Shown here: positions 19,055-58,155 of the stretch, in pieces
How positions within the stretch are numbered: the first letter of the stretch is position 1
How the letters are laid out: every line of letters starts with the position of its first letter
DNA from: Mesotaenium endlicherianum
Taxonomy: Eukaryota
Length of the DNA stretch: 64,000 nt
Assembly (NCBI GenBank): GCA_009602735.1
Contig: WELA01003517.1
Coordinates: 87,141-151,140 of the forward strand
Direction of reading: 5' to 3'
Program-made: the position numbers and the translations under genes
The notes under the pieces: model-generated
What the model saw: only the letters and a program-made list of their open reading frames with translations
What the model was told of the DNA's origin: nothing
Databases searched by the model: none

Positions 19055-19088
19055 ATGGTATTGGAGCAATTATCACACTCTTCTTTGT

Positions 19089-20468: not shown

Positions 20469-20634
20469 TTCCTTGAGACACTCCCGATTCTATGTGCAAC
20501 AACCTAGTAGGTGTAGGTCTGATCTTACGTCTTTGATAAGCAAGGTTCAAAAAGTACTCCTGTACTTCTAGCAGGTAATTGGGATCGAACAGATGTCGGT
20601 AAATTTGCTTGTAATCTAAATCATGGTGCCAGCA

Positions 20635-21355: not shown

Positions 21356-21389
21356 GTGGTATCGGAGCAGTTATCACAGTCTTCTTTGT

Positions 21390-22868: not shown

Positions 22869-22957
22869 TCCAGTCTACTGACTGTGAGGATGCTAGAGAT
22901 AGTGAGTCGTCACTAGCTGCCCTCGTAGCAGGTATTATGGGTCCTGCTGAACTGGAT
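22844..22957 (+). promoter_or_regulatory. Putative -1 programmed ribosomal frameshift signal (gag to pol), family A
   Basis: Slippery heptamer T TTA AAA (22844-22850) in the gag frame, 7-nt spacer, 10-bp stem ACAGTCAGTA/TACTGACTGT. Pol lies in the -1 frame and is open from the heptamer. The same signal is at 29615 (A1) and 46049-46055 (A3, minus). Confidence 0.8.
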
Positions 22958-26720: not shown

Positions 26721-27044
26721 CAGTCATTTCAGTTGACACGGGAAGGTGACAGGAGGTCCTGTCTCCATATAAGTTGGAGGGGGATGCGATAGTTAGTGAC
26801 AGTTGTGACAGGCAGCCCACCTTTAAATTTAAGTTGGAGAGAGTGGTATTCTCTGATCACCATATTACACACTCAACCTGCGCTCACACTCACTTGCTCT
26901 CCAACTCAATTTTCCCTTATATTCACTCACACCAGGTATTCCACACTAGGAACTCTTCCGATCGCGTTCCTCTTCATCAAGGGCACTCAGTAGCGGCAAA
27001 ATATCATGACTTCACTAACTGCATTGTGTTTATGATTGAGCAGG

Positions 27045-28736: not shown

Positions 28737-28821
28737 GGGCAGCAGGCTGGGGATAAGAGGGACAGCATGCTGTTATTAGTGTTAGTGTTGTTGAGGCGAC
28801 AACATGATAAGTTGGAGGGAT

Positions 28822-29543
28822 TGTAATGAATCAGTATACCGGTTGACATAATATTCATTTAAATAACATAGCTAAATAAGTTCAGCCTGCTGAACTCTAG
28901 TTAACAATCAGTCTGCTGGACTTTATACTTAATATCAGTTTAATGACTCAGGCCGGAAGTAGCAGGCTGAGGTCACCTTAAGTAAGCTTGCTGACACATT
29001 CTTTGACAGCCAGCTGACTTCCGTACTCGGTAGCAGCGAACTGCCTCGATATGCATCTAAGTGTGGTATGCTAGATGAATGGCCAGACGACATCCCTATG
29101 ATGGATGGCGATTTGGGATGATGGGAGATGGCGGTGGATTTGGTTAACCGAGGTCCTACCAACGTGGTTAACTCCCGGGTAGGCGGTGCCATCGCACTGA
29201 CCGTTGAACAATAAACTCATTCCATGTACATATGCTAGGCATTGCTCTCGAGTTCGGCATTCGGAAACGAGGCCAACTCTCTTGTACAGCTTACTGAGAG
29301 AGATCTGAATCCAAGGCGAGAAGCCATTGATATGCACTGTCTTCTAACCTTGCTTATGTATGAGTTTACTGATTGGCATTATTGATGCTAGTTTACTCGC
29401 ATTTGACTTACGAGTATTATTCACTGCTAGTGTGTTGTCCTTTGCCGTTAAACCAGTTAACGGAAAATACCATAAAGATTACTTGCTGATATAAAGATCT
29501 TTATTAATTGTTAATCGCCTATTTGGTAAGTCGATTCATTTCA
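28822..29543 (+). repeat. A2 3' LTR
   Basis: Follows the PPT and is followed by TSD CAGCA. Confidence 0.95.
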
Positions 29544-29548
29544 CAGCA

Positions 29549-32500
29549 GCTGGGTCACTACAAAAAGGAGTGTCCAATCAAGCACCTTCCAAAGGTCGAG
29601 AGAGAGGACCAGCCTTTAAAAGACAGCAACAGTCAGTAATCCAATCTACTGACTGTGAGGATGCTAGAGATAGTGAGTCGTCACTAGCTGCTCTCGTAGC
29701 AGGCATTATTGGTCCTGCTGAATTGGATTCACTATGCATGCTTGACAACCAGATAAAGGAGACCATCAGCAATATAGATCCCCAGAGAGTGCACTCTCTG
29801 GAGGATCTTGTACGACCTGATGTCCAACATTTCTTTGCTAAGTCGAGAGAACAATGCGAAAATCAGGAAAAGTCAGTCCCCCCTATTGTACTTCATTGCA
29901 TGATTGCAGGTAGGAAGGTGAGGGCATTTGTTGACGGAGAGGCGTCACATACTTTTATCCATAAGGACTTAGTTAAGCTGCTAAGGCTAACCACTGTCAC
30001 CCAAGGGAATAGACAAATATTCCTTGGAGATGCCTCAAGTATCCCGGGAGGAGTTATAACCAAGCCTATTGAGGTCCAGTTAGGTTCTGGCATTGCAGTT
30101 CTAACTGAAACGCTTACATTTGAGGTACTCAACACTGGCTTTTATGATCTCGTGCTGGGCAGGTCCTGGCTTAATAGACATCAAGCTGAAGTGTGTTGGA
30201 GCAGAGGTACAGTTAAAGTGAGAGGAGCCAGTGATGGGCAGACTGACTTGGCACCCACCAGTGCTCTTCCTCTTGTCCTGTGTGGATGGCAAATGAAGGA
30301 AAAGAAGAGGCTTCCAGAAGGATGCAAGTTGCTGAATGCAATGGAGTTCGTCAAAAGCTGGAACCAGAAGGAAGACAGAATGTTCTGTCTGCTGCTAAGA
30401 GAGGTACCTCCTCAACCCGAAGAAGTGGTTGAGAAAAAGGTGAGCCCTCCGGAGCACCCCACTGCTGCAGAAATGGTTGCTCAGTATAATGATGTTTTTT
30501 ATATGCCTCCAGGACTGCCCCCTAAGAGGGAAGTAGATCACAAGATTGATTCATTACCTGGGAGTCAGCCACCTTGGCAACGCACCTATGGCTTGTCTTA
30601 CGTGGATAGCGAAAAGTTAAAAACACAAATTGCAGAGTTGGAGGAAAATAGTCATATTTCCCCCAGTAAATAACCTTATGGCGCACCCATCCTATTTATT
30701 AAGAAAAAGGATGGAAGCATGCGGATGTGTGTGGATTACAGAGCTCTTAACAGAATTACAGTAAAGAACAAGTATGCTTTATCCAGAATCGAGGACTTGC
30801 TTGATACCCTGTCTCTTGCTAAAGTATTTAGTAAGATAGATCTCAAGATTGGTTATGATCAAATCAAAATTGCTGAGGGAGATCAACACAAGACTGCCTT
30901 CCGCACACGTTATGGACACTATGAGTTGAATGTGATGCCATTTGGACTGATTAATGCCCCTGCAAACTTCATGGGTGCTATAAATGACATTTTCAGGCCT
31001 TACTTGGATAAGTTTGTGCAAGTCTTCTTGGATGATATTTTAATTTTTTCTAAAGATGAAGCTCAGCATGCTGAGCACTTAAAGACAGTCATGGACACTG
31101 AGAAGAAATCAATTATATGCTAAAATGAGCAAGTGTGATTTCTTTTAGGAAAATATTGAATTCTTGGGCCACGTTGTCGGTAAGGAAGGCATCAGTGTGG
31201 ATCCTAAGAAAGTCCAGACCATAAGGGACTGGCTAGTACCACAGTCTGTCTCGGATGTTAGATCCTTTCTTCGGTTGGCTAACTATTACAGAAGATTCAT
31301 TGGAAACTATTCTACAAAGGCCAGCAAATTGACTGACCTTATTAAGAAAGACATAGAAATTGTGTGGGGAGAAGAGCAGCAAGCTGCCTTCCAGACTTTT
31401 AAAGATGCTCTTTATTCTGCCCCAATCTTAGCTGTGTATGACCCCAATAAACCTGTGGAGGTGGTTACTGATGCTTCAGACTTTGCCATGGGTGCTATTT
31501 TGTTGCAGCCTGCTGACAAAACCATACAGGATGGTAAGGTAAAGCAGGAGTGGCACCCTCTGCTGTATGAGTATGAATTTCAACTCAGCTGAAATTAACT
31601 ATTCCGTGCATGATGAAGAGCTGCTTTCTATCATTCATGTGCTCAAACAGTGGAGAGCATACTTATATGGTAAAGCTTTTAAGGTGATTACAGATCATTT
31701 AGCTCTGACTCACTTTCAGAAGAAGTCCAAGCTGTTGAGGAGGGAGAACCGCTGGAGCCAGATGCTGGAGCAGTTTCAAGTCCAGATTGACCCGCTGATG
31801 CACTCTTTAGAAGACCTGACTTGCAAGAAGGGAACTTTAGTCAGCATGCTGTAGATAAAGTCCATTGCGCACTCACTGCATTAAAGGTGAAAAAGTCCTT
31901 CCTCGAACAACTTAGGAAAGCCTATCTTTCTGACCCAACATGTGAGTCCAGCCCCACTGGTGGTGTGTGTCCTGCCACTGCACTCAAGTATAGGCTAAAG
32001 AGAGGGGTCTGGGTAACCGAAACCACTTCAGGCAGACTGAAACTGGTCATTCCCAATAACTTAGAAATAAGGTCACTCTTACTGAGTCAAGCACATGATA
32101 GTTTACTGGGTGGACATTTGGGGCAGGCCAAAAGTGTTGGCAAACTGGCAAAACAATATCACTGGGAGGGGTTACCTCGGGAGGTCTTGAAATATGTTAA
32201 GTCCTGTGATCAGTGTCAAAAGAATAAGTATAGGCACACACCAATTGGGGGGCTATTACAACCACTACCCAGCCCAGCTAGACGCTGGGAATCAATATCC
32301 ATGGACTGGGTGGTAACACTACCAAGAACCGCCAATGGGCATGACTCGATACTAGTAGTAGTGGATAAACTGACAAAAATGGTCATTTTCATCCCCACAA
32401 CTGTCAAAGTAACTGCCCTTTAAACTGCAAGATAGTTCTACAACCATGTAGTATGCCAACATGGGCTACTCTCTAATATTATCTCAGACAGAGACTCAAA

Positions 32501-33397
32501 ATTTACCTCTAAGTTCTGGAGAGCTTTAATGGGGTTAATGGGAGTCAAACAGCTGCTCAGCACAGCAAATCACCCTCAAATTGATGGGCAGACTGAACAA
32601 ACTAACCGGGTTTTGCAAGATTTGCTGAGAGCATATATTAACCAAAAACAGGATAATTGGGATGACCTGTTGCCTCAAATTCAGTTTGCGGTCAGCAGTG
32701 CGGTGCATGCGTCAACGAGAAAGACTCCTTATGAGCTCAGTCTGGGTAGAGTCCCTAAGTCTCCTTTAGATGTGCTAGGGGAGTCTTTAACTCATGCTGA
32801 GGGCATTGACAACCCAGTGTCTCTCCAGTTAACTTAGGAGTTTGCTGACACCTTGTCAGAAGTTCAACACAATCTGCACAAAGCCCAAGAAATTCAACAA
32901 AAATACGCTAATCAACACCGTCGAGAACGACATTTTCAAAGGGCGATTTGGTCAAACTGCATTCTCAACACCTGTACCTGCCTAGTGTGGTCAAGGAAAA
33001 GCTTGGTCTCGTCTGGGTCAGTCCATATTTGGTGGTGCGCCGTGTCGGTCAGAATGCTTACAAACTGAACATGTCAGTTGAATACAAGGGTCACCCAGTC
33101 TTTGATGTCTCCTTCCTGGAACCATACATCAAAGGTGACACACTGTTCACAGGTTGGTTACCCGTCCAACCGGGACCGGTCCCCGCTGTTAGGGATAGTG
33201 ACCCCGACGAATATGAGGTCGAGGAGATTTTAGACGCTCGCTCTGTCAGTCAATCATCTAAATATGTCATGAAGTACCTGGTCAGATGGAAGGGTTACGA
33301 TGCCTTTGGGGACACTCGGGAATTGAAGGACCATTTGACCAATGCCATAGGGGCGTTGAAACGGTTCCACCTTCGGGCGGCTGGGGCACCTCCATAA
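29549..33397 (+). pseudogene. pol: A1 gag end and pol (PR-RT-RH-IN-chromodomain), heavily disrupted
   Basis: Collinear with A3 pol, with many stops and frameshifts across ORF fragments 29570-33397. Confidence 0.92.
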
Positions 33398-33791
33398 CTG
33401 TCATTTCAGTTGACATGGGAAGGTGACAGGAGGTCCTGTCTCCATTTAAATTGGAGGGGAAATGTGCCAGTGAATGACAATTAGTGTGCGAGAAAGGGAC
33501 AGTTATTGACAGTAAAGTGTCAGCATGGTGACGGATGTGACAGCTAGAAATAAGCAAAGTTGGCGGAATAAGAAAAGGGACCAGCACATCAACAAATCAC
33601 TCAACTCACCCTGCACACAACATTCATCCGTTTATTCTTCATCGCACTACATTCTCGTTAACTCCTAGTAACCACCCTGTAAGGTAAACAAGAACATACC
33701 TGCCATCATAATACAAACTTACTTCTCTTCCTGCAACTCCTGTGACAAAGATTAAGATCCTACTAACTTGTGCCCTGGTTACATGTGCAGG

Positions 33792-35239
33792 ATGGCTCCC
33801 ACCACACAAAAGGAAGACAAAAAGCGCAAGGCAAAAGAAGCCAGGAGGACGATGGAGCAATACCGAAAAGAGTTGGCGGCGACGTCCCTCACCAGGAAAG
33901 AACAAGAAAGAGTTCGCAGACAACAAGAGGCGGCAGAAGAAGCACAGAGGAAGAAGGAGCAGGAGGCGGAAAATCTCAGGAAAGCTGAGGAGGAGAGACA
34001 GAAGAAACAACAAGAGGAAGCGGCGGCAGCAGAGGAGGAGAGAAGGTTGAAGCTGAGAAGCAGAAGAGCCTGGCCACTTACAGATATACTGTGGTGGGTA
34101 GCCAAATCTTTGATAACCTGAAGGGAGCATTGCTGGCAGCCCAGGAGATCAACAAGGTGGAACAAAAAACGATGTTACAGAGGCAAGGAGCAGAAGTCCT
34201 GGACAGGTATATTGAAACACACACTGGTGTGGTCCTCTACAAAGATTATGCCAAAATGGTGGGGTATACAGCAGAGCAGGCACGTTTTCTTGCAGATGAC
34301 TCGGAGGATAAGCCGGTACCAGTGGTTGGCATAGTAGGGAATCAGAGACTCATCGGGATGGTCAACATGCCGCCGGATAGCTTCAAGGATGCAATATTCT
34401 ACCTGACACTACTGCCAGCCTACAATGAAGTTGAGAGGAGGAGCTGGGAGTACTTGGCCAGGGAAACAGGACAGCAGATGTTCTCTCCCTACTAGTTCCC
34501 TTGTAAGCTGAAAAAGGTTGAGCATGGGCCATAGTATTACCAGCAGCCCACAGACTGGAGGTGGATGACCGTCACTAACAGGAAGCAGCAGTGTGATTGG
34601 GTCCACCCAGATGACTTCCATTATGGGCTGGACGGCTACCTCATCCTACCACCTCACATTGCCCCTTGGGACCCCAGGCTGAATGGATGCCTGAGTAATA
34701 TGAATGCTGAGACCAAGGAGCACAGGAGGAGGGGGAGAGACTATTTCTCTAAGGGGAAGCATGCCTTTGTCAAATGGGCGAAGAATGCAAGCCGGGTAGT
34801 TATCAGCAGGCTGAAGGCCAAGCAACCTCCAACTCGTCCTAAGAAAGGGCGGTCAGTAGATTTCTTCATGTCTACCCGGGAGCAGAATGACTTAGTGGAC
34901 GAGGCCCCTACTCGCTCTGAGGAGGAAGATGAGGAGGATGAGGAAGAAGAACAGGGTGGGGCAGAAGCATCAGGATCTGGTACTCAGGAGACCCAAAGGC
35001 AGGCAAAACAGGGACTCCTAGGGCGCCAAGATCAGGTGTATGGAATGTGATCCCTACTGTAGAGGCAACAGGACCCCGCCCTCGTTCTCCCAGCCCACCT
35101 GCCCAAGCAGGGAAAGAAGCTGATTTGACTGTTCTTGGCAGCAGAGAAAGGCTGAAATTCCCAGAGGACAGGGGTACCAGAAGAGGGACACGCGAAGTAG
35201 CCAGAGAAATGCTGGCCACCCCCTTCAGTCAGGGACATG
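33792..35239 (+). pseudogene. A1 accessory ORF3 (type I), disrupted; 3' end continues at 49816-49905
   Basis: MAPTTQKED... closely similar to A3 ORF3. Interrupted by element B. The tail RRPADRPRGLSRSRSRS resumes after 49815. Confidence 0.85.
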
Positions 35240-35600
35240 CATCGACATTACTAGAATATTCTACCTTAGACGCGCTAGGCTAAACCGAAACTTCTAGGTA
35301 AATCGACCTAGTCGGCACTCCGCGTCAGCCAAACTTACGTGAAGGTTCGAGTTCATTCTAACGGGCCAGATCGCTCGACGCTGTCGGTCAATCCGACAGT
35401 TGCGCTCACCGCGAATTAAGGACAGTTGTCAACCGACCTCAAAATTAATTAAACTTCGGAAATCTGTAACTCTCTTAATACTTGACCAAATTTGATGAAC
35501 TTTATATCAAAATGACCAAAACAATGCACTCTATACTATTATACAAAAAAACCACTTTCTTGAAACTCAAAAATGCACTTTATAAACCTATGACCTTACA
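35235..35600 (-). repeat. Family B 3' LTR, truncated
   Basis: Matches ~49448-49815 only; the rest is deleted. Confidence 0.88.
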
Positions 35601-38600
35601 TCATCCCCCTCCTCAAGATGCGACGTCCTCGACGCATTCTGCAGATAACGTCTCAACTTACTCTTACAATGGGTCAAGTTGGCCTCTGGCTCCCAAGTGT
35701 TGTTGTCCGCATGGTAGCCTTTCCACTTGACCAGATACTCTTGGACAAATCGCTGACCTCGTTTGACTCGTCGATCGCCGACAATCACCTCCACTTCATA
35801 CTCCAATACATCATCGATCTCGACCGGTGGTGGCGGTGTAGGTAGTCGCCCTGGATGTCCTTCATTCGGGTCAACGTATGGCCGCAGACAATTGACATGG
35901 AACACAACATGGATACGCCAGCCTGAAGGAAGTTCCAACTTGTAGGCCACTGGATTCACCTGCTTGAGCACTACAAAGGGACCTGTGAACCGTGCCCGCA
36001 GTTTCCTCTTGCCTGTGAAAGGTAGGTTCTCTGTGGACAAGAGTACTTTGTCGCCCACATGGAATGTCACTTCCCTCCTGTGCTTGTTAGCATGCTTGAC
36101 GTGCTCTTCCTATGCCTTCCGAATACACGTCTTTGCCATATGCCAAGTGTTGGCCATCTGCTCCATAAAAGCTTGTGTAGTAGGAACCTGAGTCTCCTTG
36201 GCCTTCTCCAACAAGATGTTCCCTGGATGATATACTTCTCGCCCATAAACCATAGCGAATGGTGACTGCTTGGTGGATCCCTGCATGCTGTTGTTGTAGG
36301 CAAACTCCAATCCTGGCAGCTTCTTGTCCCACTCTGAAGGGTCCTCCATAGTGAAACTCCTGAGCACCTCTTGCAGAGTTCTGTTGAGCCTCTCACTCTG
36401 CCCGTCTGTCTTAGGGTGATAGGAAGTGCTCATACTCAACTTGGTCCCTATCAAAGTAAACAATGACCGCCAAAAGTTGCTAGTAAACCTTGGATCCCGA
36501 TCTGAAACAATCACCTTTGGCAACCCATGTCGCCTGAATATATGATCAAAGAATAGCCGTGCCACATCCGCTGCCGTAGAAGTCTCCTTCATGGGAATGA
36601 AGTGAGCCATCTTGCTGAGCCTATCAGACACAACCCATACTGCATCGTGCCCTTGACCACTGCCTAGTAACGATGTGATGAAGTCCATAGCAATCTGCTC
36701 CCAAGGATACTCTGGAATAGGCAGGGGCTGCAATGTACCTCCCTTCTTTTGATTTGGTGTCTTGTTTCTCTGGCACGCATCACAACTCCTGATCCACTCC
36801 TCGATGTCCTTGTCCATTTTTCTCCAATAGTACACTCGCTTCAGCACGCTTGCCGTCTTCTCGCTTCCAAAGTGTCCAGCATATAAGCAATCATGATGCT
36901 CCGCAAGTAGTAAGTCTCGTAGCTCCTTGATGTCAAGTACCACCACTCTCTTGGAATCACCATAATACCATATGCCGTCCTCCTTCTGCATACTTGAGTT
37001 GGACTCAGCTGCTCCACCATCAGCAAACTCGGGGTCCTCCTCATAACCTCTTTAAAGCTTCTCCTTGAAGTCCATACTCTCCTTGATGACCGAGAAAGCT
37101 GCAAGGTCACACCTTCTGGATAAGGCATCTGTAGGGTTGATCTTCCCAGATAAATACTCAATCTTGTGGTCGAATTGTTGCAGAAACTCCATCCACCTTG
37201 CCTGTCTTGGTGTCAACGTTGGTTGCGTCATAAACTTCTCCAAGCTCTTGTGGTCGGTCTTGATGAACACCTTCCGGCCGTCCACATAACATCGCCAAAT
37301 CCTCAAAGCCTGGATAATAGCCAACATCTCTCGCTCGTGTGCTGCATAGTTCTGCTCCGCAGGACTCAACTTTCTGCTCTCATATGCCACAGGCTGCAAT
37401 CCTTTGCCTTGGTCCTGGAGAAGAAAAGCTCCCACTGCAAAATTTGATGCGTCCGTGATGATGGTGAAAGGAAGCTCTGGACTGGCAATTGCCAACACAG
37501 GTGCTTGTGTCAACAGCTCCTTAATCTTCTCGAAGGCTTGCTGCTCCTTGTCACCCCATAGCCACTTCTCCTGCTTCTTCAACATGTCCGTGAGCGGTGC
37601 ACACACCTTGGCAAATCCTTCAATGAAACGTCGGTAATAATTCGCCATGCCGAGGAAACTCCTGAGTTGATGAATATCAGCAGGTACCGGCCAATCTCTG
37701 ACTGCTTGCACCTTCTTCTGCTCCACCTTGACTCCTTCAGCTCCCACTATGTGTCCAAGAAACTCGACCTCCTTGAGACAGAAGTCGCACTTGCTCATCT
37801 TCCCATACAGCTTTTGATCTCTCAAGACCTCCAACACCTTCCTCAGATGCCCCACATGCTCCTCCAAGGTCTTCGAATAGATCAGGATGTCGTCCAAAAA
37901 TACCACCACAAACTGGTCCAAGTAGGGTCTGAAGATACTATTCTTGAGTCCCATGAATGTAGCAGGTGCATTAGTCAATCCAATAGGCATGACTGTGAAC
38001 TCAAACAAACCATAGCGAGTTCTGAAAGCAGTCTTCTGAACGTCTCCTTCCGCAATCCGTACCTGGTGATAGCCACTCCTCAAATCGATCTTCGAGAAAT
38101 ACTTCGCCCCGACAAGCCTGTCAATCAACTCGTCCACTCGTGGAAGTGGGTACCTGTTCTTGATAGTGACCTTGTTGAGTGCCCGGTAGTCAACACACAT
38201 CCTCATAGTCCCATCCTTCTTCTTCACAAATAAGACTGGCGCTGCAAATGGAGACTCGCTGGGTCGGATGAATCCCTTCTCCAATAACTCTGTCAGCTGC
38301 TTCTTCAACTCATCCAACTCTGCAAACGATTGTCGATAGGCGGATCTCACTGGTGGCTTGCTCCCCTGGTTCCAACTCGATCTTGTGCTCCATAGCTCTC
38401 TGTGGAGGTAATCCTGTAGGTAGCTCCTCAGGAAATATGTTCTTGAACTCCTCCAACAGCGCCTTAATTTGGGCAGGCATCTCAGCAAGCTTCTTCTCTT
38501 GAGCAGTTGGGCTCTGCTCCTTCTGAGCAAGGGGATCAGACACCACTACTTGCTCCTCCGGCGATGTACATTCGCCGAGGCTGTTAGGATTCACGCTTGC

Positions 38601-39230
38601 TCCATCTGATGACCTGGCCAGAGCCACCGAAACAAGGTACATCTCCTTCACCTGATTCGCCCTGCATAGCTTCTTAACTTGCAGGCTCGACAGAAGACAG
38701 TTACTTGTGGTCGTATCTACCTCCACCTGTTTCGCTGTCTCCATTCGACCATCACGCCCTTGGACCTTCACTTGTCCTGTACTCCAGTGCACTTGAGNTG
38801 TACTCCAGTGCAATTGAGGGTTGGCTTTTCTTAGCCATGGTCGGCCCAATATCACCTCATGGTGACCTAACTCTGCCTGCTCCATAACTTCAGTACTCCG
38901 GTGCCTCGCTACTTCCACGTGAATAGCTTCCGTAGGTGCACCACAATTGAGTCTCTGCCCATTCGCCAAAATTGCCTTCTTAGGCTCATAATGCTTTTGC
39001 ACAGGGATTCGCCACTCTTTCACCAGCTTCTTGTGCACAAAGTTTGCATTTGCGCCACTGTCGACCATACACTTCGCCTTGTTGCCGTCGACCACTCCTT
39101 CCACGATGATAGGCTTGTCAACATCTCGTCCTACGCTTCTCGGCAGGCTCCTGGGGATAACCTCCTTGTGAGTTCTCGTCTTCACGCCAGTAGACACCCC
39201 AGAACAACTTACTGGCGTCCTCCTTTTTCC
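35588..39230 (-). pseudogene. pol: Family B pol (PR-RT-RH-IN-chromodomain), frameshifted
   Basis: [43 protein letters not shown], chromodomain EYEVEVIV..YLVKWKGY..NTWEPEANL. The stop lies just inside the 3' LTR. Confidence 0.92.
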
Positions 39231-39468
39231 TGCTGTTGAGGTTGCTTTGCCTTCACATAACAGTCTCGAGCCATATGTCCAAGCTTGCCGCAATTATAGC
39301 AGGGTCCTCTCGGCTTAAAATTCTGCTGCCTGCGTTGGTACTGCACAAGTCCCAACTCCATAGGTACAGGACCTTGAACACTCGTGCTTGGCGCTTGAGA
39401 TCCAAAGGGTCGATAACCTCCAAAGTTGTGGCTGCCCCACTGCCTCTGACTATACTCCACAGCGTCGA

Positions 39469-40188
39469 TGAAATGAATCGACTTACCAAATAGGCGATTA
39501 ACAATTAATAAAGATCTTTATATCAGCAAGTAATCTTTATGGTACTTTCCGTTAACTGTTTAATGGCAAAAGGACAACGCACTAGCAGTGAATAATACTC
39601 GTCAGTCAAATGAGAGTAAACTAGCATCAATAATGCAAATCAGTAAACTCATACATAAGCAAGGTTAGAAGACAGTGCGTATCAATGGCTTCTCGCCTTG
39701 GATTCAGATCTCTCTCAGTAAGCTGTACAAGAGAGTTGGCCTCGTTTCCGAATGCCGAACTCGAGAGCAATGCCTAGCATATGTACATGGAATGAGTTTA
39801 CTGTTCAACGGTCAGTGCGATGGCACCGCCTACCCGGGAGTTAACCACGTTGGTAGGACCTCGGTTAACCAAATCCACCGCCATCTCCCATCATCCCGAA
39901 TAGCCATCCATCATAGGGATGTCATCTGGCTATTCATCTAGCATATCGCACTTAGATGCATATCAAGGCAGTTCGCTGCTACCGAGTACGGAAGTCAGCT
40001 GGCTGTCAAAGAATGTGTCAGCAAGCTGACTTAAGTTGACTTCAGCCTGCTGCTTTCGGCTGAGTCATTAAACTGATAATTATGTAAAGTCCAGCAGACT
40101 GACTATTAACTAAAGTTCAGCAGGCTGAACTTAATTAACTATTATATTTAAATGAATATTATATCCACTAATATACTGATTCATTACA
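39469..40188 (-). repeat. A3 3' LTR
   Basis: Adjacent to the PPT; matches 47544-48263 with scattered substitutions. Confidence 0.95.
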
Positions 40189-40301
40189 ATCCCTCCAACT
40201 TAACTTGTTGTCGCCTCGACAACATTAAACTGCAGAAATTTTAAATAAGGGAACTGAACCTGACCAGCCTCCCTTACTGACTGCCTCTTCAGCGTGTCAC
40301 C

Positions 40302-41978
40302 TTAAGGGGTTGTTCCTGGGGCTTCAGGGTCAGGAGACGGAGATCTGGACCTAGATCTGGACAGCCCTCTAGGTCTGTCAGCTGGCCTTCTAAAGAACCC
40401 TGTTTGCTCTAAAGTTGGCCCTCGAGGAGAACGGAGGATGGTGGCCTGCTCTTCAACCACTTGGGTGTTGATTCCCACATAGACAGGCATTCCAGTAGGA
40501 TGCTGAAATACATTGGCTAGAGGTACATGCCCCTGAGCGGAGGGGGAGGCTGGCATACCTCTGGCCCACCCGCGTGTCCCTCTTCTGGCACCCCTGTCCT
40601 CTGGGGATTTCTGTCTGTGTCTGCTGCCCAGTACAGTCAGATCAGCTTCTTCCCCTGCTTGGGCAGGTGGGCTGGGGGAGCGAGCGCGGGGTCCAGTTGT
40701 CGCCATAACGGGGATCACATTCCAAACACCTGATCGTGGTTCTTTAGGAAGCGCCCCTGCCTGTCCCTGGGTATCCTGAGTACCTGCTGCTGATGCTTCT
40801 CCTCTGCCTTGTTCTTCTTCCTCATCCTCCTCATCCTCCTCCTCGGAGAGAGTAGGGGTCTCGTCCACTAAGTCGTCCTGCTCCCTAGTAGACATGGAGT
40901 AGTCTACCGACCTCCCTTTCTTAGGGCGCGCTGGAGGTTGCTTGGCCTTCAGCCTACTGATATCTATCCGGCCTGCATTCTTTGCCCATTTGACAAAGGC
41001 ATGCTTTCCCTTAGAGAAGTACTCTCTTCCCCTCCTCCTATGTTCCTTGGTCTCTGCATTCATATTGCTCAGGCATCCATTCAGCCTGGGGTCCCAAGGG
41101 GCAATGTGAGGTGGTAGGATGAGATAGCCGTCTAGGCCATAGTGGAAGTCATCCGGTTGGGCTCGGTCACACTCCTGCTTCTTATTTGTGACGGTCATCC
41201 ACCTCCAGTCTGTTGGCTGCTGGTAGTACTGGGGTCCGTGCTCAGCCTTCCTCAGTTTACACGGGAACCAGTGGGGAGAGAACATCTGCTGTCCTGCTTC
41301 CCTGGCCAAGTACTCCCAGCTCCTTCTCTCAACTTCATTGTAAGCTGGCAGGAGTGTGAGGTAGAATACCGTATCCTTAAAGCTATCGGGCCGCATGCTC
41401 ACCATCCGGATGAGTCTCTGATCTCCCACTATTCCCGGTATGGGGACCGGCTTGTCCTCTGAATCATCTGCGAGATACCGGGCCTGCTCTGCTGTATAGC
41501 CCACCATCTTAGCATAATCTTCGTAAAGGACCACGCCGGTGTGTGTCTCGATGTACCTGTCCAGTGCTGTAGCTCCTTCCTTCTGTAGCAGTGTTGTCTG
41601 TTCCAGCCTGTTGATCTCCTGGGCTGCCAGCAATGCTTCCTTCAGGTTATCGAAGTTTTGGCCACCCACCACAGTATACCTGTAAGTGGCCAAGCTCTTC
41701 TGTCTGTCCGCTTCAATCTTTTTTCTTTTCTCCTCTTCTGCCGCTGCCGCTTCTTCTTGCTGTTTCTTCTGTCTCTCCTCCTCAGCCTTCCTGAGGTTTT
41801 CCGCTTCCTGATCCTTCTTCCTCTGTGCCTCTTCTGCCGCCTCTTGTTGTTTGCGGACCCTTTCTTGTTCTCTCCTGGTGAGGGACGTCGCCGCCAGCTC
41901 CTTCTGGTATTGCTCCATTGTCCTCCTGGCTTCTTCTGCCTTGCGCTTTCTGTCCTCCTTTTGTGTGGTGGGCGCCAT
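40302..41978 (-). CDS. A3 accessory ORF3 (type I), 558 aa, unknown function
   Basis: Uninterrupted ORF with the ATG directly after a splice acceptor. N-terminal charged coiled-coil-like region, aromatic-rich conserved core, acidic tract, Ser/Pro/Arg-rich tail. No obvious transmembrane segment. Confidence 0.85.
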   Translation of the reverse strand: MAPTTQKEDRKRKAEEARRTMEQYQKELAATSLTRREQERVRKQQEAAEEAQRKKDQEAENLRKAEEERQKKQQEEAAAAEEEKRKKIEADRQKSLATYRYTVVGGQNFDNLKEALLAAQEINRLEQTTLLQKEGATALDRYIETHTGVVLYEDYAKMVGYTAEQARYLADDSEDKPVPIPGIVGDQRLIRMVSMRPDSFKDTVFYLTLLPAYNEVERRSWEYLAREAGQQMFSPHWFPCKLRKAEHGPQYYQQPTDWRWMTVTNKKQECDRAQPDDFHYGLDGYLILPPHIAPWDPRLNGCLSNMNAETKEHRRRGREYFSKGKHAFVKWAKNAGRIDISRLKAKQPPARPKKGRSVDYSMSTREQDDLVDETPTLSEEEDEEDEEEEQGRGEASAAGTQDTQGQAGALPKEPRSGVWNVIPVMATTGPRARSPSPPAQAGEEADLTVLGSRHRQKSPEDRGARRGTRGWARGMPASPSAQGHVPLANVFQHPTGMPVYVGINTQVVEEQATILRSPRGPTLEQTGFFRRPADRPRGLSRSRSRSPSPDPEAPGTTP

Positions 41979-42245
41979 CCTGCACATGTAACCAGGGCAC
42001 AAGTTAGTAGGATATGGACCTTTGTCATAGGGATTGCAGGAAGTATGTTAGTATTTAGTATAGTGGCTTCGCTGCTGTTTACCTTACAGGATGATTGCTA
42101 AAAGTTGACGTAGTTGCGATGCGCTACACATAAACGTATGAGTGTGTTTTTATCGCTCTCGCTCACTAACTGTCATATATTTTCCCCTCCAACTTAAATG
42201 GAGACAGGACCGCCTGTCACCTTCCCGTGTCAACTGAAATGACAG

Positions 42246-45200
42246 TTATGGAGGGACTCCAGCGGCCCGAAGGTGGAACCGTGTCAACGCCCCTTTGGCA
42301 TTGGTCAAGTGGTCCTTAAACTCCCAAGTGTCCCCAGAGGCATCGTAACCCTTCCATCGAATGAGGTATTTCATGACATATTTAGACGATCGACGGACCG
42401 AGCGAGCGTCTAAAATCTCATCGACCTCATATTCCTCAGGGTCGCCGTCCCGGACAGCGGGGACCGGTCCCGGTTGGACAGGGAACCGACCTGTGAACAG
42501 TGTATCACCTTTGATGTACGGTTCCAGGAAGGAGACATTAAAGACCGGGTGCCCCTTGTATTCAGCTGACATGTTCAGTTTGTAAGCATTCTGACCGACA
42601 CGACGGACCACCGAATATGGACCGACCCAGACAGGGCCAAGCTTTTTCTTGACCACACCAGGGAGGTACAGGTGCTGAGAATGCAGTTTGACTAAATCCC
42701 CCTTGGAAAATGTCAGTTCCCGACGGTGTTGATTAGCGTATTTTTGTTGGTTTTCTTGGGCCGTGTGCAAGTTTCGTTGGACTTCTGACAGGGTGTCAGC
42801 AAACTCCTGAGTTAACTGGAGGGAGACCGGGTTGTCAATCCCTTCAGGGTGAGTTAAAGATTCCCCTAGCACATCTAGAGGAGACTTAGGGACTCTACCC
42901 AGGCTGAGTTCAAAAGGAGTTTTGCCCGTTGACGCGTGCACCGCACTGTTGACCGCAAACTGAATTTGAGGCAACAGGTCATCCCAATTATCTTGTTTTT
43001 GGTTAATATATGCTCTCAGCACCTCCTGCAGAACTCGGTTAGTTCTTTCAGTCTGCCCATCAGTCTGAGGGTGGTTTGCTGTGCTGAGCAGCTGTTTGAC
43101 TCCCATTAACCCCATTAAAGCTCTCCAGAACTTAGAGGTGAATTTTGAGTCTCTGTCTGAGATGATATTAGAAGGGAGCCCATGTTGGCATACTACATGG
43201 TTGTAAAACTGTCTCGCTGTTTCGAGTGCAGTCACTTTGACAGTTGTGGGGATAAAAATGACCATTTTTGTCAGTTTATCCACGACTACCAGTATTGAAT
43301 CATGCCCGTTGGCAGTTCTTGGTAGTGAGACCACCCAGTCCATGGATATAGTTTCCCAGCGTCCCGCTGGGATGGGTAGCGGTTGCAAGAGACCTCCGGG
43401 TGGTGTGTGCCGAGACTTATTTCTCTGACACTGGTCACAGGACTTGACATATTTCAAGACCTCCCGGGGTAACCCCTCCCAATGATAATGTTTTGCCAGT
43501 TTGCCAACAGTTTTGGCCTGCCCCAAATGTCCACCCAGGAGACTGTCATGAGCTTGACTCAGTAAGAGAGACCTTATTTCCAAGTTATTAGGAATGACCA
43601 GCTTCAGCCTGCCTGAAGTGGTTTCAGTCACCCAGACCCCTCCCTTGAGCTTATACCCGAGTGCAGTAGCACGACACACACCAGTAGTGGGGCTGGGCTC
43701 AAATGTTGGGTCAGAAAGGTAGGCTTTCCTAAGTTGTTCAAGGAAGGACTTTTTCACCTTTAGTGAAGTGAGTGCACACAGGACTTTATCTACAGCATGC
43801 TGACTAAAGTTCCTTTCTTGCAAGTCAGGTCTTCTAGAGAGTGCATCAGCAGGATTCAACTTCCCTGGTTTGTAGTCGATCTGGACTTGGAACTGCTCCA
43901 GCATCTGGCTCCAGCGGTTCTCCCTCCTCGACAGCTTGGACTTCTTCTGAAAGTGGGTCAGAGCTAGATGATCTGTAATCACCTTAAAAGCTTTACCATG
44001 TAAGTATGCTCTCCACTGTTTGAGTACATGAATGATAGCTAGCAGCTCTTTATCATGCACTGAGTAATTAATCTCCGCTGGATTAAATTTCATAGACTCA
44101 TACAACACAGGATGCCACTCCTGCCGTACCTTACCATCCTTTGTGGTTTTGTCAGCAGGCTGCAACAAAATAGCACCCATGGCAAAATCAGAGGCATCAG
44201 TAACCACCTGCACCGGTTTGCTGGGGTCATACACGGCTAGCACTGGGGCAGAACAAAGGGCATCTTTAAGGGTCTGGAAGGCAGCCTGCTGCTCTTCCCC
44301 CCACACATACCCGATGTCTTTCTTAGTAAGGTCAGTCAGTTTACTGGCCTTTGTGGAATAATTCTCAATAAATCTCCTATAGTAGTTAGCCAACCCGAGG
44401 AAGGATCTAACTTCAGAGACAGACTGTGGTACTGGCCAGTCCCTTATGGTCTGGACTTTCTTAGGATCCACACTGATGCCCTCTTTACTGACAACGTGGC
44501 CTAAGAATTCAATACTTTCCTTAAAGAAATCACACTTGCTCATTTTAGCATACAAGTGATTTTTCCGCAGAGTGTCCAGCACTTTCTTTAAGTGTTCAGT
44601 GTGCTGAGCTTCATCTTTAGAGAAAATTAAAATATCATCCAGGAAAACTTGCACAAACTTATCCAAATAAGGTCTGAAAATGTCATTCATAGCACCCATA
44701 AAGGTAGCAGGAGCATTAGTCAGTCCAAATGGCATCACGTTGAACTCATAGTGTCCATAACGTGTGCGGAAAGCAGTCTTGTGTTCATCCCCCTCAGCAA
44801 TTCTGATTTGATGATAACCACTCTTGAGATCTATCTTACTGAACACCTTAGCGCCAGACAGGGTATCAAGCAAGTCCTCGATTCTGGGTAAAGCATACTT
44901 GTTCTTTACTGTAATTCTGTTCAGGGCTCTGTAATCCACACACATCCGCATACTGCCATCCTTTTTCTTAACAAATAGGATAGGTGCGCCGTACGGTGAT
45001 TTACTGGGAGAAATGTAACCATTTTCCTCCAGCTCTGCAATCTGTGTTTTCAACTCCTCGCTCTCCAAATAAGACAAGCCATAAGTGCGTTGCCAGGGTG
45101 GCTGGCTACCAGGTAATAGATCAATCCTATGATCTACTTCCCTTTTAGGGGGTAGTCCTGGAGGCATGTTAAACACATCAGTGTACTGAGCAACAATTTT

Positions 45201-46055
45201 TGCAGCAGTAGGGTGCTCCGGAGGGCTTACCTTTTTCTCAACCACTTCTTCAGGTTGAGGAGGTACCTCTCTTAGCAGCAGACAGAACATTCTGTCTTCC
45301 TTCTGGTTCCAGCTTTTGACGAACTCCATTGCATTCAGCAACTTGCATCCTTCTGGAAGCCTCTTCTTTTCCTTCATTTGCCATCCACACAGGACAAGAG
45401 GAAGAGCACTGGTGGGTGCCAAGTCAGTCTGCCCATCACTGGCTCCTCTCACTTTAACTGTACCTCTGCTCCAACACACTTCAGCTTGATGTCTATTAAG
45501 CCAGGACCTGCCTAGCACGAGATCATAAAAGCCAGTGTTGAGTACCTCAAATGTAAGCGTTTCAGTTAGAACTGCAATGCCAGAACCTAACTGGACCTCA
45601 ATAGGCTTGGTTATAACTCCTCCCGGGATACTTGAGGCATCTCCAAGGAATATTTTTCTATTCCCTTGGGTGACAGTAGGCAGCCTTAGCCGCTTAACTA
45701 AGTCCTTGTGGATAAAAGTATGTGACGCCCCTCCGTCAACAAATGCCCTCACCTTCCTACCTGCAATCATGCAATGCAGTAGGATAGGGGGGACTGTCTT
45801 TTCCTGACTTTCGCATTGTTCTCCTGACGTAGCAAAGAAATGTTGGACATCAGGTGGAACAAGAGCATCCAGAGTGTGCACTCTCTGGACGTCTATATTA
45901 CTGATGGTCTCCTTTATCTGTTTGTCAGGCATGCATAGTGAATCCAGTTCAGCAGGACCCATAATACCTGCTACGAGGGCAGCTAGTGACGACTCACTAT
46001 CTCTAGCATCCTCACAGTCAGTAGACTGGATTACTGACTGTTGCTGTCTTTTAAA
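42246..46055 (-). CDS. pol: A3 Pol (PR-RT-RH-IN-chromodomain), intact, probably reached by -1 frameshift from gag
   Basis: 1238-aa ORF, open upstream to the slippery site at 46049-46055. Catalytic motifs and a chromodomain ([25 protein letters not shown]) are present. Confidence 0.95.
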
Positions 46056-47509
46056 GGCTGGTCTTTTCTCTCGACCTTAGGCAGGTGCTTGACCGGACAC
46101 TGTTCTCTGTAGTGGCCTTTCTGCTGACAATGGTAGCAAGTAGATTTTGCTGAGGCTGGTCTCGGCTTAGTCCTACCACCACCCCTTCCATAGCCACCTC
46201 GAGAGGGACCACCTCTACCTCTAGACTGAATAGCATTGTACTCATACTCATATTCATCACCCTGATTATCCTCAGCCTGGTCTCCTTCAACTGCATTGTA
46301 GGAACCGTGGGGCTTTTTGACAATCTTAGACACCAAAGCGTTACTCTGGCGCTTGTGATTGAACTGCTGCTGATCCCAGGCGTCAGCATCCTGGATCAAG
46401 TCAGCCAGTTTCTCATACTTTTTCTCAGCAAAATGACCAGAGACCTCGGATTTCAAGCCATACCTGAAGTATGCTATCCTATACCGTTCTGGCAAATCAG
46501 GCTGCTTCATCATGTTCTCTTGGAACTTTTGAGCAAACTCAGCAACTGAAGTGGTCTGCTTCAGTGTCAGGGAGATCATCGCATAGATAGCTTTCTCCTG
46601 CTGGTTGATGACATCAAACTTCTCATGCAACTTCTCGACAAACTCTACCCACGTAGGGTCACCGAGTTGCCGAGCCTTACGCTCTTCCTTCCAGTAAAGC
46701 CACCAGTCTGCGGCACTGCCTTTCAGTAGCGCACCGGTGTGCCTGACCTTCTCGTAATCTTGCAGTTCTGGGTAGTTCTCCAGCCACTGCTCAACATCCG
46801 CGAGAAACTTGATCAGGTAATATTTTCTGTTTCCCTCAGGATCATAGTCCTGGGGAGGTTTCGGCTTGGGCTTACTAGGCCCTCGGCCACCACCACTAGT
46901 GGTGTGAGACCCCAGTTGGTCTCTGTCCCGGAGTAGGGACATTATGATTCTTTTGTCCTCCTGCTGGGACTGATACATGGTCGCCATTTGCGACTGCATC
47001 TGAACGAACAATGCTCCCAAGTCTACATTTTGGGGTGGTAGATTAGCAAATGCAGCAGCAGCATTGGCATCTACTCGCTGAGTAGTGTCCTCAACAATCC
47101 CTCTTGCTCCTGCAGCAGCAATTCCTGCCGCATTCAGCCGGTCACGTATTTGACCTAGGGGTACATTGAGTTGTACGGCAGGAGGTGGGTTCAGAACATT
47201 GGCCCTTGATGCCATAAGTTCTTCAACAGTGCGCTCGTCAGCTGGCTGTCCTTCCCTCCTTTGTATATCTTCAGCGGCCTTTGCTACTTGTTCAGCTTCT
47301 AGTCTGGCTATCTCCTCCTCAGCTTGCTGAGCTGCGACTGAGGCAATAGCAGCTGCCTCATCTGCAGCCTCCCTAGCTGCAGTATCCGCTACTGCTTCCG
47401 AATAGGTACGGTTTCCCGCTACATGGCTTTCCGCCTGGTTTTCGACATTCTCGTTATCCTGGTTCTCCATGTCTCGGGAGTTGCTAGTTTGAGACCTTGT
47501 CCTTACCAT
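46031..47509 (-). CDS. gag: A3 Gag (492 aa)
   Basis: Nearly identical to A2 Gag; CCHC knuckle present. Confidence 0.94.
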
Positions 47510-47543
47510 ACAAAGAAGACTGTGATAACTGCTCCGATACCAC

Positions 47544-48263
47544 TGAAATGAATCGACTTACCAAATAGGCGATTAACAATTAATAAAGATCTTTATATCA
47601 GCAAGTAATCTTTATGGTATTTTCCGTTAACTGGTTAAACGGCAAAGGACAACACACTAGCAGTGAATAATACTCGTAAGTCAAATGCGAGTAAACTAGC
47701 ATCAATAATGCAAATCAGTAAACTCATACATAAGCAAGGTTAGAAGACAGTGCGTATCAATGGCTTCTCGCCTTGGATTCAGATCTCTCTCAGTAAGCTG
47801 TACAAGAGAGTTGGCCTCGTTTCCGAATGCCGAACTCGAGAGCAATGCCTAGCATATGTACATGGAATGAGTTTACTGTTCAACGGTCAGTGCGATGGCA
47901 CCGCCTACCCGGGAGTTAACCACGTTGGTAGGACCTCGGTTAACCAAATCCACCGCCATCTCCCATCATCCCGAATAGCCATCCATCATGGGGATGTCAT
48001 CTGGCCATTCATCTAGCAGGTCGTACTTAGATGCATATCAAGGCAGTTCGCTGCTACCGAGCACGGAAGTCAGCTGGCTGTCAAAGAATGTGTCAACAAG
48101 CTGACTTAAGTTGACTTCAGCCTGCTGCTTTCGGCCGAGTCATTGAACTGATAATTATGTAAAGTCCAGCAGACTGATTATTAACTAAAGTTCAGCAGGC
48201 TGAACTTAATTAACAATTAGATTTAAATGAATATTATATCCACTAATATACTGATTCATTACA
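47544..48263 (-). repeat. A3 5' LTR
   Basis: Adjacent to PBS TGGTATCGGAGC on the minus strand. Confidence 0.95.
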
Positions 48264-49071
48264 GTCGACCCTTGTTGCCAATGCCATCATTTCTCCAAGA
48301 CTGGTAGGGTCCTTCAGCGCCACTTCCTTGGCCACAGTTGGCTTGAGTCCCCTCTTGAACTTGTCCATCATCTCCGACTCGTGCATGGATGGACATTGAA
48401 GCACCAGCTCGTTGAAGCGCGATACATACTCCTCTATGCTTCCTCGTTGACGAAGGCGCACCAATAGATTTCGTGCGGTAGCCTCGGGTGCAATAGGTTG
48501 AAATTGCCTCTTCAAGCAGAGCTGATCAACAGTAGCAGGAATTCCAGACAGCTGCTCCTCTCGTTCATACCAAGCTCCAGCACTCTTCTGCAACAAAGTT
48601 ATGACAAAGGCGACTTGCCTGTCGGGCGTGAGCGCAGAATACTCCATAAACTTCTTCACTCCAAAAATCTATTGATGAACAGGCGGCGATCCACGCTCTC
48701 CAGTGTACACTTCAGGCTTAGGCACACGCACTCTCGATGCGGGTGGAATAACTGGTTGCACCACTGGGTTAACATGAATTGGTGGTACAACGGGTGCAGG
48801 TGCCGAATTCGTCGAAGCAGCATTCCCAATAACAACTCGCACCATTCTCTCCACTTCCGCGCGCATATTTTGTTGGAATGGGGCGTAGACTTCTCCTCCA
48901 ATTGCATTCGCCATTTGCCTTAGCATCGCCTGCATCTCCTGTTGCTCTCTAGTCATTGTTGGTGCTGCCTGCTGCCCCGCGCGCTCGACATGCTCGACAT
49001 GTTCGCCTCCTCCAGCTGCCGGCTGCGACTCCATAATATAATATGCAAACTAGCCCAGCTCTGATACCAAA

Positions 49072-49815
49072 TGAAAGGGGCAGAGTGCCCTAGTGGAAGC
49101 GTAGTGACTCACGAGGAACAAAGCTAGCTGCAATCATACTCAAGAGTGCAGCGGCATATTGCTAAGAAAGCTTAGGAAAATTATTTGACATTTTGAGTGG
49201 CAAGAAACTGCTCACAAATGATGAAGGATGAAAGGTCTTGTCATTACAAACCCGTAGAAATTTACAGAAGTGAAAACTGATAAGAAACAAAGAAGTTATG
49301 CCTATTTATAATTTTCTGCCTAAATGCTCCTCTCTAGAAGGAAGCTACGGATTTTCCCAAGTGTTCGTCAAATCGTCCCTTTCAGAATATTCGTGAGTAA
49401 GCCAGATCAGTCTAATCTGACGTGGCGGGCCAAATTGACGTCCACCTACATGCCTCGACATTACTAGAATATTCTATCTTAGACGCGCTAGGCTAAACCG
49501 AAACTTCTAGGTAAATCGACCTAGTCGGCACTCCGCGTCAGCCGAACTTACGTGAAGGTTCGAGTTCATTCTAACGGGCCAGATCGCTCGACGTTGTCGG
49601 TTAATTCGACGGTCGCGCTCACCGCGAATTAAGGACAGTCGTCAACCGACCTCAAAACTAATTAAATTTTGAAAATCCGTAACTCTCTGAATACTTGACC
49701 AAATTCGATGAACTTTATATCAAAATGACCAAAAAAATGCACTCTATACTATTATATAAACAAAACACACTTCCATGAAACTCAAAAATGCACTTTATAA
49801 ACCTATGACCTTACA
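49072..49815 (-). repeat. Family B 5' LTR (~744 bp)
   Basis: TGTAAGG...TTTCA on the minus strand, followed by the PBS. Confidence 0.9.
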
Positions 49816-50137
49816 AGAAGGCCAGCTGACAGACCTCGAGGGTTGTCCAGATCTAGGTCCAGATCTCAGTCCCCTGATCCTGGAGCCCTAGGAACAACCC
49901 CCTAAACATCAAAACTATCCTCCAGTCAAGCCTTGCTGGAGGTCTCTCTGTTTGCACCCCACAACGGAAGTGGACTGAGGGTGGAGGTGACAATTCACCG
50001 TCATTAGTGATCCCCACAGCTAGGCAACAGTGTTGAAGCAAGAGGCAGGCGGTGGAGGGGTAGTTCTGTTAGTTCCCTGACCAGATAATTTTATAGTTTA
50101 ATGATGTCGAGGCGACAACAATTTAAGTTGGAGGGAT

Positions 50138-50851
50138 TGTAATGAATCAGTATATTGGTAGATATAATACTCATTTATAGTAGTTAATTAAGTTCAGCTT
50201 GCTGAACTATAGTTAACATTCAGTCTGCTTGACTTTATATAATTATCAGTTAAATGACTCAGCCGAGAGCAGCAGGCTGAAGTCAATTTAGGTCAGCTTG
50301 CTAACACATTCTTTGACAGCCAGCTGACTTCCGTACTCGGTGGCAGCGAACTGCCTAGATATGCATCTAAGTGTGATATGCTAGATGAATGACCAAATGA
50401 CATGCTTGGGATGGATGGCGATTTGGGATGATGGGAGACGGCGGTGGATTTGGTTAATCGAGGTCCTACCAACGTGCTTAACTCCCGGGTAGGCGGTGCC
50501 ATCGCACTTGCCGTTGAACAGTAAACTCATTCCATGTACATAGGCTAAACATTGCTCTCGAGTTCGGCATTCGAAAACAAGGCCAACTTTCTTGTACTGC
50601 TTACTGGGAGATATCTGAATCCAAGGCGAGAAGCCATTGATACGCATTGTCTTCTAGCTTTGCTTATGTATGAGTTTACTGATTGCATTATTGATGCGAG
50701 TTTACTTGCATTTGACTTGCGAGTATTGTCCACTGCTAGTGTGTTGTCTTTTGCTGATTAATCAGTTAACAGAAAATACCATAAAGATTACTTGCTGATA
50801 TAAAGATCTTCATTAATTGTTAATCGCTTATTGGTAAGTTGATTCATTTTA
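50138..50851 (+). repeat. A1 3' LTR
   Basis: Follows the PPT; terminal CA mutated to TA; followed by TSD TCCAC. Confidence 0.93.

Positions 50852-58119: not shown

Positions 58120-58155
<36 letters not shown>

Follow-up and report, generated by a model that had tools for sequence, protein, structure and literature searches.

A conserved third ORF of two divergent types in a chromovirus family of the streptophyte alga Mesotaenium endlicherianum

Background

Accessory ORFs (aORFs) that lie in the sense direction between pol and the 3′ LTR form an established class without known function, and what additional ORFs contribute in plant LTR retrotransposons is described as an open question (PMC7264820). 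Here we analyze such an ORF, called ORF3, in a chromovirus family of Mesotaenium endlicherianum (family A). Our comparisons with described systems draw on passages of the papers cited and of PMC11963269.

The “env-like” ORF2 of Athila and the ORFs of Bagy2 and SIRE (aORF-3S or eORF-3′F) resemble ORF3, in the passages compared, in that they occupy the same position in sense orientation, are conserved among copies, have predicted splicing and are of unknown function (PMC7264820, PMC6317226, PMC7197481). Unlike them, ORF3 has no TM helix and no Pfam match to Athila ORF1, TRP28 or the plant mobile domain. The setting also differs, in that the host is a streptophyte alga, the element is a chromovirus with an aromatic-cage chromodomain, and ORF3 has two apparently exchangeable types between duplicated PPTs.

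Extra ORFs are also known in chromoviruses. In Tekay elements, forward 3′ extra ORFs (eORF-3′F) are recorded at 18% and forward 5′ ones (eORF-5′F) at 33% (Neumann et al. 2019, PMC6317226, Additional file 5). The same source describes eORF proteins as highly heterogeneous, with 314 groups in Ty3/gypsy, and in its table Chlamyvir, Tcn1, Galadriel, Reina and CRM have no entries for eORFs; exceptions to this could be in its Additional files 1 and 3. An “add. ORF” of unknown function is drawn among fungal and Selaginella elements (Novikova et al. 2010, PMC2864245), and a conserved 5′ aORF is reported in sunflower Tekay (PMC11728184). Because chromovirus extra ORFs are thus known from Tekay and fungal elements, the class of feature is not new, and the statement in an earlier note on this DNA that chromoviruses normally encode only gag-pol was too strong. 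As far as these passages describe them, the Tekay and Novikova elements are like family A in combining a chromovirus with a conserved non-env ORF that has no known domains and has NLS-like and disordered parts. They differ in that the pol of the intact family A copy lies outside the seed-plant group in our tree; no sequence link to them emerged from the database searches run with ORF3.

Two further systems are more distant. VANC, of the VANDAL MuDR elements, is like ORF3 an accessory protein carried by a TE, combines a globular domain with a long helix, and possibly has family-specific variants, but it belongs to a DNA transposon, is related to MAIN and is described as dicot-specific (PMC13547354); no sequence or fold link to ORF3 was found, the ORF3 models being too poor for a fold comparison. 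Arabidopsis accessory TE proteins are reported to have dN/dS values above those of core proteins, unlike ORF3 (PMC13547354). The gene23 of maize Grande is likewise an accessory gene in the interval between pol and the 3′ LTR, and is reported to be nuclear and to have its own promoter; unlike ORF3, it is antisense and occurs in a non-chromovirus, with no sequence link found (PMC7264820).

Beyond the known class, family A appears to add, judging from its sequence, the exchange of a PPT-bounded cassette and conserved splice-like signals. Family A is useful for study in that one copy of the ORF is uninterrupted, purifying selection on it could be measured, two variants occur naturally on near-identical gag-pol and splice sites are predicted, and its host is a culturable alga in the sister group of land plants.

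Results and discussion

Three copies of the family in a nest of LTR elements

The window, meaning the whole stretch of 64,000 nucleotides that we analyzed, contains three copies of family A (A1, A2 and A3). The family is a chromovirus (Ty3/gypsy), with gag and PR-RT-RH-INT between LTRs, a PBS, a PPT and a 5-bp TSD. In agreement with the earlier note, a sense ORF lies between pol and the 3′ LTR in all three copies, uninterrupted in A3, with one stop in A2 and broken in A1.

A3 is a full-length element on the minus strand. Its 5′ LTR (47544..48263) and 3′ LTR (39469..40188) are 97.1% identical and are flanked by the TSD TCGAC. The primer-binding site, TGGTATCGGAGC (47531..47542, minus strand), is presumably of the tRNA-iMet type. 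The gag gene (46031..47509, minus strand) encodes a Ty3 capsid and a CCHC knuckle, and pol (42246..46076, minus strand), in the −1 frame relative to gag, encodes protease, RT, RNase H, integrase, SH3 and chromodomain. The two genes overlap by 46 nt (46031-46076, minus strand), within which T TTA AAA is a candidate slippery site. ORF3, a reading frame from ATG to TAA that encodes 558 aa (40302..41978, minus strand), follows the pol stop (42246) and precedes the 3′ LTR (40188-39469). An internal copy of the PPT (42183..42196, minus strand), about 50 nt past the pol stop, marks the 5′ edge of what we call the cassette, and the terminal PPT (40189..40202, minus strand) marks its 3′ edge. A short hairpin stands ahead of each A3 PPT (42196-42225 and 40203-40225, minus strand) and is kept in A2 and A3; its z-scores are −0.9 to −2.4 in four folds.

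The other two ORF3 copies were located by tblastn. Element A2 (20635..29543, plus strand) has LTRs that are 97.2% identical, the TSD CAGCA, an internal PPT at 26771 and a terminal PPT at 28809. Its ORF3 (27045..28736, plus strand) has 563 codons with one premature TAG at codon 222 (27708-27710), and its single N is inside a private 24-nt duplication. Element A1 (18338..50851, plus strand), the oldest copy, has LTRs that are 94.1% identical and the TSD TCCAC, and is interrupted by A2 and by element B. The 5′ part of its ORF3 (33792..35239, plus strand) has two TAGs and frameshifts, and the 3′ end (49816..49905, plus strand) follows past the inserted element B, which splits the ORF with the loss of about 133 nt.

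Together these elements form a four-level nest (15382-54393), in which a copia element (LTRs 15382-15820 and 53956-54393) contains A1, A1 contains A2 and B, and B contains A3. The LTR identities of A1 (94.1%), B (94.0%), A2 (97.2%) and A3 (97.1%) make this order consistent. Element B (35235-49815, minus strand) is a second chromovirus and lacks an ORF3. Its 3′ LTR is reduced to 366 bp, and it seems that one deletion removed the rest together with the roughly 133 nt of the A1 ORF3. An empty-site junction for A3 (39463/48264) was seen in two reads of one public run and in one contig of another, so copies of B without A3 exist.

The integrase of A3 ends in a chromodomain (PF00385, E 2e-8, aa 1216-1268) with the Tyr/Trp/Tyr cage residues present (EYEV..WKGY), which fits group I as that group is described in the relevant passage of PMC3350952. 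A FastTree of RT-RH places A3 outside the seed-plant group, in a set with Haematococcus and Closterium elements, with supports near A3 of at most 0.69. This tree has 53 rows, namely A3, B and 51 of the 120 hits listed, with all Tanacetum and several others omitted and no named references. Compared with Tcn1 as characterized in PMC6317226, the gag/pol overlap of A3 is similar, but its tRNA-type PBS is unlike the usual self-priming.

ORF3 is a selected gene

Between A3 and A1, the dN/dS of ORF3 is 0.167 (95% bootstrap interval 0.12-0.23; 462 codons; dS 0.47, dN 0.078), calculated by the Nei-Gojobori method with 500 bootstraps and with codons containing stops or N excluded. Purifying selection on an accessory ORF had been proposed in the earlier note, and the ratio is far from 1, the value that was to count against it. 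Mutations that arose in the dead A1 copy after its insertion could only have raised this ratio. When the same alignment is read in the two shifted frames, dN/dS is 1.18 and 1.51, so the conservation of the ORF3 frame is beyond chance. The constraint is equal to that on pol, since the A3 versus A1 values are 0.162 for pol and 0.195 for gag. By region, dN/dS is 0.09 in the N-terminal helix, 0.133 in the core and 0.44 in the tail piece. For A3 versus A2 a ratio of about 0.17 is merely indicative, because silent sites are saturated (pS 0.73). ORF3 is therefore almost certainly a real, selected gene. Like the aORF-3S class, it is a sense ORF of at least 250 codons in the interval between pol and the 3′ LTR; it is present in all three family copies within the window and is conserved, with a dN/dS of 0.17.

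Two types of ORF3 on a common backbone

A1 and A3 share one type of ORF3 (type 1, 84% aa identity), and A2 alone carries a divergent type 2. The two types (A3 versus A2) have 40% aa identity by BLAST and 48% over aligned pairs. Thus, the observation that A2 and A3 are very divergent was correct, with the added correction that A1 belongs to the type of A3. All the motif blocks that had been quoted as conserved are found in the ORF3 alignment.

The relationships of the rest of the element are different. The gag-pol DNA of A2 and A3 is about 95% identical, and silent divergence between these two is low (dS 0.07 in pol and 0.04 in gag) compared with A1 versus A3 (0.29 and 0.37). The LTRs of A2 are 94-95% identical to those of A3, and those of A1 90-92%. 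In 400-nt windows, A2 and A3 are 93.5-99.8% identical across the second half of the 5′ LTR and onward to the end of pol, and the cassette is unalignable; their similarity ends about 20 nt past the internal PPT, a copy of which follows pol in all three elements, and restarts about 25 nt ahead of the terminal PPT. Within the LTRs, A2 and A3 are about 91% identical in the first 400 nt of each and 98% in the remainder.

Since the divergent block is bounded by the two PPT copies, ORF3 appears to be a cassette swapped by recombination. A template switch during reverse transcription could have fused the 5′ portion of an A3-like RNA with the cassette and U3 of another co-packaged RNA, and the identity pattern of A2 and A3 matches what would be expected of such a switch by analogy with retroviral reverse transcription. 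The direction of the swap is suggested by parsimony among three copies.

Further copies of both types exist in public DNA data. A 600-nt contig of type 2 has 18 differences at depth 17, and a 548-nt contig of type 1 has 3 differences at depth 40. Of the 24 runs listed, which come from 7 studies, 20 contain at least half of the type-1 words, and no RNA run is among the listed runs with such words.

The two types bear on the idea that ORF3 is a helper of the particle or pre-integration complex, serving in nuclear import, as a chaperone or as a chromodomain-partnered integration tether. Such a role would suit its long charged helix and its NLS-like patches, as well as the conserved block at aa 484-502, a possible binding motif, and the element lies within a dense nest of LTR elements and has an internal PPT, a feature of active elements in the account of PMC7197481. 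However, the pairing of types that are 40-48% identical with a Gag and Pol of 96-97% identity is a poor fit with tight contact to Gag or integrase, and ORF3 has no similarity to Gag. We therefore consider a particle helper unlikely.

Predicted splicing and transcription

The ORF3 leader carries splice-like signals in all three copies: a donor stands at −104, −109 or −108, CAG/GATG at −1 and, between the two, ACTAACT near −30. In A3, a 103-nt intron is predicted (41980..42082, minus strand), with an AG/GTAAAC donor at 42082, ACTAACT at 42008-42002 and CAG/G abutting the ATG. The predicted A2 intron of 108 nt (26936..27043, plus strand) has AG/GTATTC, ACTAACT and CAG/GATG, in DNA that cannot be aligned to that of A3, and a corresponding intron is predicted before the A1 ORF3 (33684-33790, plus strand). 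When each copy was resampled 20,000 times under a first-order Markov model, the triple of donor, branch site and acceptor, a pattern picked after inspection, turned up in 0.2-0.5% of cases. In the 8.8-kb A3, the leader site is the sole CTAAC-type branch-plus-AG among 16 CTRAC sites. All three copies additionally have a G/GTAAGT donor in U5, 19 nt ahead of the PBS (at 47561 in A3), and a second one right after the gag ATG.

Given that the donor, branch and CAG/GATG are equally spaced in both types, a spliced ORF3 mRNA is predicted, and it is likely, on these sequence signals, that ORF3 is translated from its own spliced mRNA. This mRNA could arise through the intron of about 105 nt from an internal promoter, or through a long env-like splice from the U5 donor.

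Transcription could be judged from three polyA runs labelled as the same species, of which about 6-12% each was read, without a host control gene. At 90% likeness, the depth on type-1 ORF3 is zero in all five bins of all three runs, and at 80% likeness one bin has a depth of 0.26. The 5′ part of type-2 ORF3 has a depth of 0.2-3, with most of the signal oriented as sense transcripts would be. Reads on gag-pol are sparse and patchy and come mainly from diverged copies, and no read joint crosses the predicted ORF3 introns at the very low depth of these runs. The element family is largely silent in the three runs. The transcription check proposed earlier is accordingly a weak one: type 1 is essentially without reads and type 2 has few, in runs where the whole element is near-silent. 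A GT..AG joint at 43999-44159 on the plus strand, antisense to pol, was seen in three reads of one run, and probably derives from a diverged copy inside another transcript.

The predicted splicing is relevant to the proposal that ORF3 acts on RNA, either as a Rev-like regulator of the export or splicing of genomic RNA or as a suppressor of RNA silencing. A spliced ORF3 RNA is predicted while the genomic RNA leaves strong donors (in U5 and at the gag ATG) unspliced; in addition, A3 has an RSRSRS tail, basic patches occur in both types, and the sunflower Tekay aORF has been proposed, in the passage we compared, as a silencing modulator (PMC11728184). By contrast, type 2 lacks the RS run, ORF3 has no match to an RNA-binding domain, and no Rfam element was detected in 26500-48400. 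An action on RNA strikes us as somewhat unlikely.

Features of the ORF3 protein

The architecture given in the earlier note, which comprised a charged N-terminus, a core, an acidic tract, an S/P/R-rich tail and no TM helix, was borne out in all but one respect. The N-terminal ~97 aa consist of 64-65% E/K/R/Q, and aa 1-97 are predicted by AlphaFold as a long charged helix (pLDDT 60-83). Only 8-9 of 89 residues in this helix are hydrophobic, pointing to a single charged helix and not to a true coiled coil, whereas the earlier note had called the N-terminus coiled-coil-like. The core (aa 98-350) is 49% identical between types, with an AlphaFold pLDDT below 50. It is followed by the acidic tract, with a net charge of −16 or −20, and by the S/P/R-rich tail, within which the short C-terminal block at aa 484-502 is conserved in both types. 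Basic NLS-like patches occur in both types near aa 10 (RKRK/KRKR) and near aa 353 (KKGR/KRGR). At aa 152-172, two short predicted helices flank A-x-x-V-G-Y-T, a stretch that in our view resembles a helix-turn-helix (HTH). The HTH-like pattern is rare in shuffles; it was tuned after seeing the sequences and so does not make a fair test.

In a hydropathy scan of both types, no TM helix or signal-like segment was seen, the maximal 19-residue hydropathy being 0.73 and 0.63. As ORF3 has no TM segment, it is not env-like, in line with its earlier description as a non-env third ORF. If ORF3 were an env-like protein or a movement protein serving spread from cell to cell, this would account for the env position and the env-like splice layout, and ESM Atlas neighbours below threshold include filamentous-virus coat proteins (0.76-0.77). 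Those Atlas scores are within the range of chance, however, and did not recur for aa 205-345. Mesotaenium is, moreover, a walled unicell, and with no membrane or signal-like segment in the protein we regard a role in spread between cells as highly improbable.

Searches for relatives

The domain, unrecognised in the earlier note, remained so in Pfam, in PDB sequences and in word-indexed and profile searches. The only Pfam match to ORF3 is a sub-cutoff one of coiled-coil type (Borrelia_P83, E 0.009). Pieces of ORF3 gave sub-cutoff matches to Obc1_C (E 0.007), DUF6462 (0.03), TraD (0.21) and FAR1 (0.28), none of which recurs in the other type. Athila ORF1, TRP28 and the plant mobile domain (PF03078, PF04195 and PF10536) gave no match at E≤0.1 for P0001 or at E≤10 for nine pieces from both types. 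PHROGs, NCBIfam and PDB sequences yielded no significant match; none of 4288 candidates in a word-indexed protein search (lengths 306-977 only) is related to ORF3; and an exact look-up found 0 of 3. A profile search of 1.84 billion representatives, a collection that includes Mesotaenium proteins, found no ORF3 homolog. Viral and metagenome contigs contained no ORF3 relative, the search returning two short integrase loci at 33-41% identity that are too short for an ORF3.

Among structure-based searches, the best ESM Atlas scores are 0.79 and 0.87, mostly to basidiomycete clusters and below the 0.9 level of a lead, and Foldseek gave no match at E≤0.001. The fold searches are uninformative on the core because its models are too poor. 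Likenesses to a filamentous-virus coat protein, to a class-I methyltransferase motif and to a FAR1/MuDR DNA-binding domain were each considered and dropped, as the spacing did not fit or the residues were not kept in both types. The ORF3 protein is thus without a match in the searches run, and its core may be a new fold. A literature search found no description of family A and none joining “Mesotaenium” and “chromovirus”; the Mesotaenium genome papers and their supplements lie outside its scope and may bear on it.

These searches also inform the alternative that the element captured ORF3 as a host gene or as a foreign passenger, which selection keeps for a function unrelated to regulation of the element, such as that of an enzyme with an unrecognised fold. 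Capture could explain the predicted 5′ intron, the cassette between duplicated PPTs and the higher GC3 of ORF3 (0.57-0.66 versus 0.48-0.50 for pol and gag), and rotifer LTR elements with captured enzymes as ORF3 are described in PMC5408684, in the part compared. Neither the 1.84 billion representatives nor the word-indexed search contained a host or other homolog, however, and the saturated silent sites point to a long residence on the element. Overall, we find capture of this kind quite unlikely.

Possible function

We tentatively prefer, short of calling it probable, a reading in which ORF3 is an accessory gene under selection, with a non-membrane product and two types on a PPT-bounded cassette, likely expressed from its own spliced mRNA and likely a nuclear, trans-acting, nucleic-acid-binding factor that raises element expression as a transactivator or anti-silencing factor. 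For this reading we have the ORF itself, purifying selection, two types on a common backbone, the cassette edges, the splice-like signals and the absence of a TM helix. The part concerning a nuclear regulator is supported by three features that both types keep, namely NLS-like patches, an acidic tract and a sequence free of TM segments. Precedents in the passages compared are the nuclear Grande and Tekay aORF proteins, the spliced subgenomic RNA of ATHILA and the anti-silencing by VANC (PMC7264820, PMC11728184, PMC13547354, PMC7197481). In the preferred scheme, ORF3 would be located in the nucleus, contact DNA through the HTH-like stretch at aa 152-172, and use the acidic tract for activation or as a surface that contacts histones. 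On the other side, no homolog or fold found in the searches run ties ORF3 to a DNA-binding family, the polyA runs showed no spliced read and next to no depth on type 1, the LTR-pair transitions given below carry no clear methylation signature, and chromovirus B in the nest transposed without an ORF3, which counts against a strict need for it.

A bolder version is that ORF3 represents a new family of retrotransposon specificity factors. Each type would recognise its own U3 or LTR to lift silencing or to activate, and the plug-in cassette between PPTs would be swapped by reverse transcriptase together with U3. If true, this would be a VANC-like arms-race module for an LTR retrotransposon in the algal lineage that is sister to land plants. 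However, transitions between LTR pairs show no clear excess at CG or CHG (0.096 CG, 0.060 CHG, 0.072 CHH); methylation pressure on family A therefore lacks this signature, which counts against a methylation arms race. We judge the specificity-factor version distinctly unlikely.

Other features of the window

A direct duplication lies at 1176-7500, with a spacing of 3139 bp and 100% identity where sampled; it begins at a single N (4314) and is possibly an assembly artefact. Within the copia element, a 263-bp tandem duplication (93%) occupies 52150-52675. The window also contains a host Hsp110/Hsp70-14 gene at 55551-62012 on the plus strand. Its first exon is 100% identical to a JGI Mesen1 protein, with the second-best match at 80%, which identifies the host as Mesotaenium endlicherianum (Zygnematophyceae), and nine coding blocks of the gene match P0127.
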